Below, in pieces: positions 6,907 through 48,819 of a stretch of DNA of 64,000 nucleotides. The stretch lies in the NCBI RefSeq assembly GCF_011045215.1, contig NZ_CP049201.1. One strand, 5' to 3'. This DNA comes from Escherichia coli (GTDB lineage: Bacteria > Pseudomonadota > Gammaproteobacteria > Enterobacterales > Enterobacteriaceae). A program made the translations under genes and the position numbers. Within the stretch, counting starts at the first letter, position 1, and each line of letters begins with the position of its first letter. The notes beneath the pieces are model-generated. The model saw only the letters and a list, made by a program, of their open reading frames with translations, searched no databases and had not been told where the DNA came from.

Positions 6907-6954
6907 GGTATTGTCGGATGCGTCGCGTGGCGCATCCGACAGTTGTGCGCAGAT

Positions 6955-7840
6955 GCCTGATGCGACGCTGGCGCGTCTTATCATGCCTACAGGCCTGAAC
7001 CGTAGGTCGGATAAGGCGCTCGCACCGCATCCGACACCGTGCTCAGTGCCTGATGCGACGCAGGCGCGTCTTATCATACCTACAGGCCTGAACCGTAGGT
7101 CGGATAAGGCGCTCGCGGCGCATCCGACACCATGCGCAGATGCCTGATGCGACGCTGATGCGTCTTATCATGCCTACAGGCCTGAACCGTAGGTCGGATA
7201 AGGCGCTCGCGCCGCATCCGACACCATGCGCAGATGCCTGATGCGACGCTGATGCGTCTTATCATGCCTACAGGCCTGAACCGTAGGTCGGATAAGGCGC
7301 TCGCGCCGCATCCGACACCATGCGCCGATGCCTGATGCGACGCAGGCGCGTCTTATCATGCCTACAGGCCTGAACCGTAGGTCGGATAAGGCGCTCGCAC
7401 CGCATCCGACACCGTGCTCAGTGCCTGATGCGACGCTGATGCGTCTTATCATGCCTACAGGCCTGAACCGTAGGTCGGATAAGGCGCTCGCGCCGCATCC
7501 GACACCATGCGCAGATGCCTGATGCGACGCTGATGCGTCTTATCATGCCTACAGGCCTGAACCGTAGGTCGGATAAGGCGCTCGCGCCGCATCCGACACC
7601 ATGCGCCGATGCCTGATGCGACGCTGGCGCGTCTTATCATGCCTACAGGCCTGAACCGTAGGTCGGATAAGGCGCTCGCGCCGCATCCGACACCGTGCGC
7701 AGATGCCTGATACGACGCAGGCGCGTCTTATCATGCCTACAGGCCTGAACCGTAGGTCGGATAAGGCGCTCGCGCCGCATCCGACACCATGCGCCGATGC
7801 CTGATGCGACGCTTACCGCGTCTTATCATGCCTACCCACT
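6955..7840. repeat. Tandem array of REP/BIME units, about 9.5 copies of a ~94-bp unit
   Basis: Unit gcctgatgcgacgc...gtcttatcatgcctacaggcctgaaccgtaggtcggataaggcgctcgcgccgcatccgacacc... recurs with starts near 6955, 7049, 7143, 7237, 7331, 7425, 7519, 7613, 7707 and 7800, with a few point differences between copies. Confidence 0.9.
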
Positions 7841-27744: not shown

Positions 27745-27789
27745 TATTGACTGCCGAGAACGTGCATTTTGTATGCCCATCCCAGCACG

Positions 27790-28135
<346 letters not shown>

Positions 28136-30075: not shown

Positions 30076-30094
30076 ACATAGATAAGTCGTGCGC

Positions 30095-30190
30095 AGATGC
30101 CTGATGCGACGCTATGCGCGTCTTATCATGCCTACGGCCTGCGGGCGAAATGTAGGCGGATAAGGCGTTCACGCCGCATCCGGCAGTCGT
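30095..30190. repeat. REP/BIME element between yaiL and frmB
   Basis: gcgcagatgcctgatgcgacgctatgcgcgtcttatcatgcctacgg ... gtaggcggataaggcgttcacgccgcatccggcag. Confidence 0.8.
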
Positions 30191-30199
30191 GCACTATTA

Positions 30200-42542: not shown

Positions 42543-43366
42543 GTGTGCTCATTAATGAAAAACTGCATTCGCGGCGGCTGAAATGGCGCTGGCCGCTCTC
42601 GCGTCAGGTGACCTTAAGCATTGGCACGTTAGCGGTTTTACTCACTGTATGGTGGACGGTGGCGGCGCTGCAACTGATTAGCCCGCTGTTTTTACCGCCG
42701 CCGCAACAAGTACTGGCAAAACTGCTCACCATTGCCGGACCGCAGGGATTTATGGACGCCACGCTGTGGCAGCATCTGGCAGCCAGCCTGACGCGCATTG
42801 TGCTGGCGCTACTCGCGGCGGTGTTGATCGGCATTCCGGTCGGGATCGCCATGGGGCTAAGCCCGACGGTGCGCGGCATTCTGGATCCGGTAATCGAACT
42901 TTATCGTCCGGTGCCGCCGCTGGCTTATTTACCACTGATGGTGATCTGGTTTGGTATTGGCGAAACCTCGAAGATCTTACTGATCTATTTAGCGATTTTT
43001 GCGCCGGTGGCGATGTCGGCGCTGGCAGGGGTGAAAAGCGCGCAGCAGGTTCGCATTCGTGCCGCCCAGTCGCTGGGTGCCAGCCGTGCGCAGGTGCTGT
43101 GGTTTGTCATTTTGCCCGGCGCGCTGCCGGAAATCCTCACCGGATTACGTATTGGTCTGGGTGTGGGCTGGTCTACGCTGGTGGCGGCGGAGCTGATTGC
43201 CGCGACGCGCGGTTTAGGATTTATGGTTCAGTCAGCGGGTGAATTTCTCGCGACTGACGTGGTGCTGGCGGGGATCGCGGTGATTGCGATTATCGCCTTT
43301 CTTTTAGAACTGGGTCTGCGCGCGTTACAGCGCCGCCTGACGCCCTGGCATGGAGAAGTACAATGA
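42539..43366 (+). CDS. tauC: Taurine ABC transporter permease
   Basis: 275-aa membrane ORF; overlaps the tauB stop. Confidence 0.93.
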
Positions 43367-44214
43367 GTGAACGTTTGAGTATTACCCCGCTGGGGCCGTA
43401 TATTGGCGCACAAATTTCGGGTGCCGACCTGACGCGCCCGTTAAGCGATAATCAGTTTGAACAACTTTACCATGCTGTACTGCGCCATCAGGTGGTGTTT
43501 CTGCGCGATCAAGCCATTACGCCGCAGCAGCAACGCGCGCTGGCCCAGCGTTTTGGTGAACTGCATATTCACCCTGTTTACCCTCATGCCGAAGGGGTTG
43601 ACGAGATCATCGTGCTGGATACCCATAACGATAATCCGCCAGATAACGACAACTGGCATACCGATGTGACATTTATTGAAACGCCACCCGCAGGGGCGAT
43701 TCTGGCGGCGAAAGAGTTACCCTCGACCGGCGGTGATACGCTCTGGACCAGCAGTATTGCGGCCTATGAGGCGCTCTCTGTTCCCTTCCGCCAGCTGCTA
43801 AGCGGGCTGCGTGCGGAGCATGATTTTCGTAAATCGTTCCCGGAATACAAATACCGCAAAACCGAGGAGGAACATCAACGCTGGCGCGAGGCGGTCGCGA
43901 AAAATCCGCCGTTGCTACATCCGGTGGTGCGAACGCATCCGGTGAGCGGTAAACAGGCGCTGTTTGTGAATGAAGGCTTTACTACGCGAATTGTTGATGT
44001 CAGCGAGAAAGAGAGCGAAGCCTTGTTAGGCTTTTTATTCGCCCATATCACTAAACCGGAGTTTCAGGTGCGCTGGCGCTGGCAACCGAATGATATTGCG
44101 ATTTGGGATAACCGTGTGACTCAGCACTATGCCAATGCCGATTACCTGCCACAGCGGCGGATTATGCATCGGGCGACGATTCTTGGGGATAAACCGTTTT
44201 ATCGGGCGGGGTAA
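43363..44214 (+). CDS. tauD: Taurine dioxygenase (alpha-ketoglutarate dependent)
   Basis: 283-aa [35 protein letters not shown]... Confidence 0.95.
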
Positions 44215-44224
44215 TACGAGAGTG

Positions 44225-44290
44225 GACGGTCCCCTCGCCCCTTGGGGAGAGGGTTAGGGTGAGGGGGCGTTCACCGTGCTTTCAACAGGT
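44225..44290. repeat. GC-rich palindromic intergenic repeat (box C-like)
   Basis: gacggtcccctcgccccttggggagagggttagggtgagggggcgttcacc lies between the convergent tauD and hemB; it contains the palindrome ccccttgggg and G-tract repeats. Confidence 0.4.
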
Positions 44291-44319
44291 TAACTCCCCC
44301 TTTCTGAAAGGAAACAAAA

Positions 44320-45294
44320 TTAACGCAGAATCTTCTTCTCAGCCAGATCCAGCGCAAAGTAGCTGAAAATCAGATCCGCACCTGCACGCTTAATCGAACC
44401 TAAGCTTTCGAGCACCACTTTCTCTTCATCTATAGCACCCGCCAGCGCGGCGAACTTAATCATCGCGTACTCACCGCTCACCTGATACGCGCCAATCGGC
44501 AATTCAGTACGTTCACGCAGCTCACGCACGATGTCGAGGTACGCTCCAGCAGGTTTAACCATCAGGCAGTCTGCGCCCTGGGCTTCATCCAGCAGTGACT
44601 CACGAATCGCCTCACGACGGTTCATTGGGTTCATCTGATAGCTTTTGCGGTCGCCTTTTAATGCGCTTCCGGCAGCTTCACGGAACGGACCATAAAAGGA
44701 GGAGGCGAACTTGGTCGAATACGACATAATCGCCGTATCTTTAAAGCCAGCAGCGTCCAGCGCCTGGCGAATCGCCTGTACCTGGCCATCCATCGCGGCG
44801 GAAGGGGCGATGAAGTCTGCACCTGCAGCAGCTGCAACCACGGCTTGCTTGCCTAAATTTTCCAGAGTCGCGTCGTTGTCGACGCCATGCTCGCACAGCA
44901 CACCGCAGTGACCGTGAGAAGTGTATTCACAGAAGCAGGTGTCTGACATGACAATCATTTCTGGCACTGTCTGCTTGCAGATGCGCGACATACGCGCCAC
45001 CAGTCCATCTTCCCGCCAGGCATCGCTGCCGGTTTCATCGGTATGGTGAGAGATGCCGAAAGTCATCACGGAACGAATACCGGCGTTGGCGATGCGTTCA
45101 ATTTCGCGTGCCAGATGTTTCTCTGGAATGCGCATCACGCCAGGCATGGCTTCAACGGCTTTGTAGTCGTCAATTTCTTCTTCAACAAAGATCGGCAACA
45201 CCAGGTCGTTAAGGCTAAGTGTTGTCTCTTCAAACATAGCGCGCAGCGCAGGAGATTTGCGCAGGCGACGAGGGCGTTGGATTAAGTCTGTCAT
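44320..45294 (-). CDS. hemB: Porphobilinogen synthase (delta-aminolevulinate dehydratase)
   Basis: Protein [39 protein letters not shown]..., 324 aa. The ORF-track start is 11 codons upstream. Confidence 0.93.
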
Positions 45295-45819
45295 GGTCTG
45301 CCTGATGTTTGTGGAATTAAGGTGCACAGTATACCTGAAGCGGGGCAGGAGTGTTTTACGAAAGTTGTCACGATGTTGACAAGAAGAGAATGAAAGAGAG
45401 ACCAGGGCATCTTTGTAATAGAAATAGCAATAACTTCATATTCACTGAAAATATTTTTTAATTTTTATTTATAGGTGCTGGTTATTATTTTTGCTAATTT
45501 GGTTGAACTGTCAAAAATTGAATTACTTAAAGTTCATTGTTTATTGATACATTATTTGTCTGATTTGTTGTTTTGGTATTTTTAGGATCTATAATTCAAA
45601 ATTAATGATTTCATTAACGTGTTGAAATGCAGTGTTTTTGTCAACTTATTCTTTGTGCGTATAGATATTTTTATATATGTCCGCAATCGGACTTAGGGGA
45701 AAGAATAATTGAACCATTCCTCTATAACGCCGCATAATCGTAAACGCGAAACATAAGATGTTTTCTATGCATTGATAATTGATGGATCAACTTATTACGT
45801 CCCTGAGGAGGGATGACAA

Positions 45820-48819
<3,000 letters not shown>

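Follow-up and report, generated by a model that had tools for sequence, protein, structure and literature searches.

The convergent genes tauD and hemB of Escherichia coli are separated by a short gap which carries a GC-rich palindromic segment, and the locus hence raises the question of what this segment is and whether it ends the two transcripts running towards each other. The gap was analysed as part of a stretch of 64,000 nucleotides (the window), for which a first-pass annotation had described, at positions 44225-44290, a palindrome resembling the box C-like dispersed intergenic repeats of E. coli, with a possible role as a bidirectional terminator or as a structural element. Both palindrome strings given there were found to be correct, as were their coordinates. 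Judged from its sequence, the palindrome between tauD and hemB is a copy of the known E. coli BoxC (PIT, TMECO) repeat, and the family as well as this exact locus have already been catalogued in the literature.

Position and architecture of the element

The stop codons of tauD (plus strand) and hemB (minus strand), at 44214 and 44320 respectively, enclose a gap of 105 nt within which the element resides, its position thus being fully intergenic. At 44232-44266 the window reads CCCTCGCCC-CTTG-GGGAGAGGG-TTA-GGGTGAGGG(G), with CCCCTTGGGG located at 44238-44247 and GGGTGAGGGG at 44257-44266, and 17 nt separate the tauD stop codon from this repeat core. The TMECO motif was defined as CCCTCNCCC-N3-6-GGGNGAGGG-N3-GGGNGAGGG by Holder et al. 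(PMC4666352), and for this pattern exactly one match was identified in the window (44232-44265), while 100 dinucleotide-preserving shuffles yielded none. Neither a second match to the pattern nor, with up to three mismatches tolerated, a second copy of the G-rich 22-mer is present in the 64-kb window. Searching positions 43000-45800 with the Rfam covariance models returned chance-level matches alone, with E-values of 3 or higher and scores far under the gathering scores.

The individual parts of the element are compiled in Table 1. Its pyrimidine block (C-arm) is classed as a 'mismatch' (mm) variant because of the G at position 6, and purine block 2 is at the same time an alternative partner of the C-arm via G.T or G.U wobble pairing. 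The conserved family unit was found to cover approximately 44224-44276 and lies fully within the segment annotated before (44225-44290). Two short open reading frames that overlap the element (44129-44257 and 44259-44366) were taken as spurious.

Table 1. Features of the tauD-hemB locus in window coordinates
Feature	Position	Strand	Description	Source
tauD	43363..44214	+	taurine dioxygenase, last gene of tauABCD	ORF listing; RefSeq annotation of orthologous loci
Rho termination region	44067	-	hemB-sense; approximate, putative position	coordinate transfer relative to the tauD stop; Adams et al. 2021
5' flank of family unit	44224..44231	+	conserved, GGACGGTC	anchored listing of type-A K-12 copies and window
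Pyrimidine block (C-arm)	44232..44240	+	CCCTCGCCC	pattern match; triad check; Holder Table 1 no. 5
Loop 1	44241..44244	+	CTTG; K-12 has CCTTG, one C more	alignment with K-12
Potential G-quadruplex motif	44244..44267	+	four G-runs, 3-nt loops	same G-rich stretch
Purine block 1	44245..44253	+	GGGAGAGGG; Watson-Crick partner of the C-arm, 8/9 pairs	
Loop 2	44254..44256	+	TTA, defining 'type A'	
Purine block 2	44257..44266	+	GGGTGAGGG(G); candidate third strand, 8/9 allowed triads	
3' flank	44266..44276	+	GGCGTTCACCG; weak likeness to the usual family flank GAACAGGCCnGCAC	anchored listing
hemB	44320..45294	-	porphobilinogen synthase, 975 nt; mechanical ORF extends to 45327	RefSeq annotation

Assignment to the BoxC/PIT/TMECO family

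BoxC, the PIT (potential intrastrand triplex) element and TMECO are treated as one motif by Holder et al. 2015 (PMC4666352), with reference to BoxC reports from the 1990s and to those of Hoyne/Maher from 2000-2002. The MG1655 genome was reported to hold 23 copies (Table 1, PMC4666352), whereby copy no. 5, located at 388,664-388,699 and classed as 'type A mm', is placed between tauD (17 nt off) and hemB in Table S2 of the same work. BoxC was likewise among the known E. coli families retrieved in an independent survey, which reported a unit of 56 bp and 32 copies. Alignment with K-12 identified the window element as the orthologue of copy no. 5, the spacing of 17 nt being equal and loop 1 being shorter by one C; as a consequence, the window core comprises 35 nt, unlike the published 36 nt. 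With the published copies it shares the exact family pattern, the TTA loop of type A, the 'mm' G in the C-arm, the 5' flank and the intergenic location.

For a comparison beyond the core, 14 further K-12 loci were retrieved and all copies were anchored on the core. The type-A copies were found to have approximately 16-18 nt in common upstream (roughly GYGCAC..GGACGGTC) and approximately 14 nt downstream (GAACAGGCCnGCAC), and in every type-A K-12 copy, as well as in the window, the 5' flank ends in GTC, mostly as [GC]GGTC or CAGTC. Because these flanks are common to the copies, the repeated unit is concluded to measure about 55-70 bp rather than 35. In the window copy the upstream GGACGGTC is present and the downstream flank is loosely similar to GAACAGGCCnGCAC, the fuller upstream flank being found in an allele of the gap that is longer by 52 nt. 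At five K-12 loci inverted pairs occur, in which the type-A downstream flank extends as a spacer of 16-59 nt, measuring about 26-27 nt in three pairs, up to a type-B core in inverted orientation; unlike these pairs of type A and type B, the window element is a solo copy. Copies of the family are seen in either orientation and with all arrangements of the adjoining genes, and at least 6 of 18 K-12 loci lie between convergent genes, namely tauD/hemB, aaeR/tldD, frlR/yhfS, zntA/tusA, yjdP/phnP and fimH/gntP.

With REP/BIME (PU) elements the repeat has in common that it is dispersed, GC-rich, hairpin-forming and extragenic, and frequently found where genes have their 3' ends. However, there is no sequence similarity to them, REPs being two-armed palindromes without a third block, and the repeat families derived from the arrays of the window (6931-7835 and 27778-28129) do not include the element. 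Of these two large REP/BIME tandem arrays, the first has about nine units repeating every 93-94 nt and the second three units repeating every 101 nt, and further solo REPs were noticed at about 2193, 10576, 14037, 14746 and 30090-30192.

Dispersal in E. coli and in distant bacteria

A blastn search with the 105-nt gap against 5,426 complete E. coli genomes returned 80,770 places, nearly all of them chromosomal and distributed over 5,408 genomes, with a median of 16 and a maximum of 29 places per genome among the 5,408. The further copies that the first-pass annotation had proposed to search for thus exist, and its assignment to a box C-like dispersed repeat is borne out by the TMECO match, by the published copy no. 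5 and by this dispersal over many genomes. Phages are essentially free of the motif (3 of 50,697 records), and where plasmid records contain it, most of these records represent chromids, or chromosomes labelled wrongly, of Klebsiella, Rhizobium, Sinorhizobium and Azospirillum.

A pattern scan of GTDB genomes, in which the matches listed span five organisms and include no enterobacterial locus, also showed the core outside E. coli. Among the matches listed, the exact TMECO pattern was found in more than 140 copies in Mitsuaria chitosanitabida (Burkholderiales) and furthermore in a Methylomirabilota MAG, a Ca. Contendobacter MAG, which has both E. coli loop types (TTA and CCG), and an unclassified MAG. 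Common to these bacteria and E. coli are the blocks CCCTC[T/G]CCC...GGGAGAGGG...GGG[T/A]GAGGG, and the alternation of T and G in the C-arm affects the identical position in E. coli, Mitsuaria and Contendobacter. The matches outside E. coli share the three blocks alone with the E. coli copies, the flanks being lineage-specific. Outside E. coli, TMECO matches were also often seen as inverted pairs 30-230 nt apart.

Structural properties

When the three blocks were checked against the triad rules, eight of nine purine-motif triads (C-G*G, T-A*T) were found to be allowed, and the one mismatched triad (G x A * A) equals the published 'mm' state. Folded as RNA, the core reaches -25.7 kcal/mol on the plus strand (z = -2.3) and -19 kcal/mol on the minus strand (z = -1.4), and with DNA parameters -10.8 and -9.5 kcal/mol; in the RNA fold of the plus strand the C-arm prefers the third block as its partner, via G.U wobble. 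The z-scores for folding of the whole gap (-1.1 and -1.4) are unremarkable, as shuffles of such a GC-rich sequence also fold well.

By CD and NMR, Holder et al. (PMC4666352) found oligonucleotides of this type to form a stable intrastrand triplex with a Tm of about 70-82 °C and not a G-quadruplex, and DMS footprinting in vivo gave no sign of the triplex. The structural element suggested earlier is compatible with these in-vitro data on similar oligonucleotides, although the in-vivo footprint was negative. The element resembles H-DNA and other purine-motif triplex tracts in its pyrimidine-purine-purine block order and in the kind and number (8/9) of its triads; however, its predicted triplex is intrastrand and would need single-stranded DNA, unlike H-DNA, which is extruded from a mirror repeat.

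The G-rich strand, with its four G-runs and 3-nt loops, is also a G-quadruplex motif in its own right, a likeness to G-quadruplex-forming tracts that gains some weight from the fact that 44244-44267 is the sole canonical motif of this kind on either strand of the 64-kb window. It could accordingly be proposed that the element acts through a G-quadruplex formed by this strand, either as DNA or as part of the tau transcript. This proposal has next to no probability, as NMR of the full oligonucleotides gave 18 imino signals, which fit a triplex and not a G-quadruplex (PMC4666352), the hairpin is still preferred when folding is carried out with the G-quadruplex option on, and the adjoining C-arm competes for the same guanines.

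Transcript 3' ends and the terminator question

The idea of a bidirectional intrinsic terminator assumes that transcription of tauABCD as well as of hemB is halted at the GC hairpin. As in intrinsic terminators, a GC-rich stem-loop follows the stop codons, and the hairpin predicted for either strand is strong (-25.7 / -19 kcal/mol) and located in a gap between convergent genes. However, it differs from such terminators in that a U/T-run 3' of the hairpin is absent on either strand, the downstream sequence being GCGUUCACCG on the plus strand and GACCGUCCAC on the minus strand, and a consensus promoter and terminator scan identified no site within the tauD-hemB gap. Earlier functional tests, as summarised by Holder et al. 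(PMC4666352), found neither promoter nor terminator activity for PIT elements. Likewise, the curated Term-seq data of Adams et al. 2021 (PMC7815308), obtained in LB at OD 0.4, in LB at OD 2.0 and in M63, list no 3' end at MG1655 388,400-388,899, and neither hemB nor tauD is named in any row. RNA 3' ends, whose absence the first-pass annotation had named, together with a lack of further copies, as refuting its reading, are thus lacking at the site in these three conditions. In these media tauABCD, which is expressed only under sulphate starvation, is off. In the SMRT-Cappable-seq tables hemB and tauD are unmentioned.

For hemB, a different end point was reported. A Rho-dependent termination region was placed at MG1655 388,499 on the minus strand, i.e., antisense to tauD and on the hemB-sense strand (Adams et al. 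2021, PMC7815308, supplementary file 2), where the reads upstream and downstream amount to 86/33 when untreated and to 146/213 with bicyclomycin (Rho score 3.8, p = 2e-9); as Rho regions were mapped with 800-nt windows, this position is approximate (PMC7815308). Transferred to the window, it would lie inside the tauD antisense, about 165-200 nt beyond the element as hemB is transcribed. As there is no 3' end at the element and a Rho region beyond it, hemB transcription is concluded to pass through the element and to be ended by Rho further on. An intrinsic terminator for hemB is thus largely refuted, and a terminator working on both transcripts is regarded as highly improbable, so that the corresponding suggestion of the first-pass annotation finds no support. 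On the minus strand a weak terminator-like hairpin (AAGCCTAACAAGGCTT, then CGCTCTCTTT) was noticed at 44018-44033, within the tauD antisense and approximately 35-50 nt beyond the transferred Rho coordinate.

Allelic variation and instability

Among E. coli genomes the gap was found to exist in three alleles. About 3,598 genomes carry a BoxC allele of 105-106 nt, and 239 carry a BoxC allele longer by 52 nt, which possesses the full family 5' flank and, before this flank, a partial duplicate, GGACGGTCaCCTCG. Roughly a third of the genomes, including uropathogenic strains such as 83972, have an unrelated 39-nt allele with a perfect 10-bp hairpin, ATGCCGGGTT/AACCCGGCAT (z = -3.4 and -4.0); in this allele the replacement comprises the entire gap, and the final codons of tauD are different too. 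The exact 105-nt gap of the window has an identical counterpart in one of the 5,426 genomes (PapM-32-1), the only one to share its C-run length variant. Its form may be the product of a deletion between the two near-repeats GGAC(G/A)GTC(A/C)C(C/T)TCG of the longer BoxC allele.

Variation was also observed at the BoxC copy between aaeR and tldD, where strains UPEC129 and S7 are short of exactly 6 or 12 nt of the G-blocks and no longer match the family pattern. These losses would fit slippage of the hexamer GGGNNA, and such slippage would explain why pattern counts differ widely between strains. The variation seen at tauD-hemB and aaeR-tldD agrees with the local variability around BoxC elements, which was reported to be higher than around control gaps (Holder et al., PMC4666352). 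A clean empty site was not found at tauD-hemB, where the other allele replaces the entire gap, nor at zntA-tusA or aaeR-tldD, which are occupied in essentially all genomes and show small internal deletions only. As to MITE-like features, no target-site duplication is evident in the anchored flanks, and inverted pairs of types A and B occur at other loci.

Functional interpretation

Considering the identity of the sequence, its dispersal and allelic variation, the lack of terminator features and the data on 3' ends and Rho from the literature, the element, a copy of the BoxC/PIT/TMECO family, probably represents a structure-prone and slippage-prone repeat which is tolerated between two gene 3' ends, is crossed by hemB transcription and has no dedicated terminator role. 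When single-stranded, it would fold back into a GC hairpin or, in vitro, into an intrastrand purine-motif triplex. Residing in a 3'-3' gap, it would interrupt no promoter and would be transcribed within the hemB 3' UTR and presumably, when the operon is on, within the tauABCD 3' UTR; transcription from hemB would cross it, with Rho ending the transcript further downstream. Its main demonstrable effect is exerted at the DNA level in the form of the polymorphic gap, which is ascribed to the proneness of repeated G-blocks and C-runs to slippage and recombination, whereby slippage is the mechanism that we infer. A lack of selected function is probable, which is an argument from absence. For the window the importance of the element is small, as both element and locus have been catalogued before, and as the sequence itself and data from the literature contradict the terminator role. 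The tauD-hemB gap nevertheless offers a convenient natural test bed, since three E. coli alleles adjoin an essential and constitutively expressed gene.

Two roles in the metabolism of the transcripts have to be weighed against mere tolerance. The hemB transcript reads the element as the C-rich strand CCCCCUCACCCUAACCCUCUCCCC, which could work as a Rho-loading (rut) module from which Rho proceeds to terminate inside the tauD antisense. No other 30-nt stretch downstream of hemB is as C-rich and G-poor as the complement of the element, which contains 18 C, 3 G and 14 YC dimers and lies about 170-200 nt upstream of the published Rho region with its Rho score of 3.8 (PMC7815308). However, the tract is partly sequestered in the hairpin, strains with the 39-nt allele lack the tract and still keep hemB, the Rho position is no sharper than the 800-nt mapping windows, and family copies are found in both orientations and in all gene arrangements. 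The composition of the sequence means that the element could contribute to Rho loading on hemB, and a rut module proper is considered quite unlikely. Alternatively, as proposed for REP elements, the hairpin might protect 3' ends, in that exonuclease trimming after Rho termination stops at the hairpin and the hemB or tau mRNA is stabilised. This would be in line with a hairpin that is stable on both strands, and the siting of at least 6 of the 18 K-12 loci between convergent genes could reflect such a 3'-end role rather than mere tolerance; moreover, the 39-nt allele has a different but equally placed perfect hairpin, which hints that a hairpin is wanted at the gap. Such trimming would however be expected to leave Term-seq peaks where the hairpin has its base, and none are listed (PMC7815308), so that protection of this kind is held to be very unlikely.

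A further reading concerns the core itself. An identical core in very distant bacteria with differing flanks appears hard to square with pure neutrality, and the three blocks may, beyond mere structure-proneness, constitute a recognition or processing site for a conserved machinery such as a structure-specific recombinase, a transposase or a DNA-binding protein; this candidate reading is put forward as an unlikely one. If it were true, the element would have been actively placed in, or would have replaced, a hairpin-bearing 3' gap at tauD-hemB, and might double as a Rho-loading tract for hemB. Over and above the tolerated-repeat reading preferred for this locus, the wider question is that of the origin and spread of BoxC/PIT and of the strong conservation of its core across distant bacteria.

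Related loci and neighbouring observations

In relatives of TauD with 92-93% identity, a convergent acyltransferase gene is located downstream in place of hemB and BoxC blocks are absent. Records named Raoultella planticola (TauD identity 92%) have a tauD-acyltransferase gap of 111-116 nt, likewise without BoxC blocks. In the E. coli window itself, an intact open reading frame of 992 aa at 45820-48798 on the plus strand occupies the place where K-12 has an autotransporter (beta-barrel domain) pseudogene after hemB. In strain OkiPb01697 the annotation gives truncated pseudogenes for the 3' end of tauD and for the greater part of hemB, separated by approximately 835 unannotated bases, which is odd for an essential haem gene, and the tauD breakpoint lies approximately 68 nt before the stop codon, away from the BoxC element.
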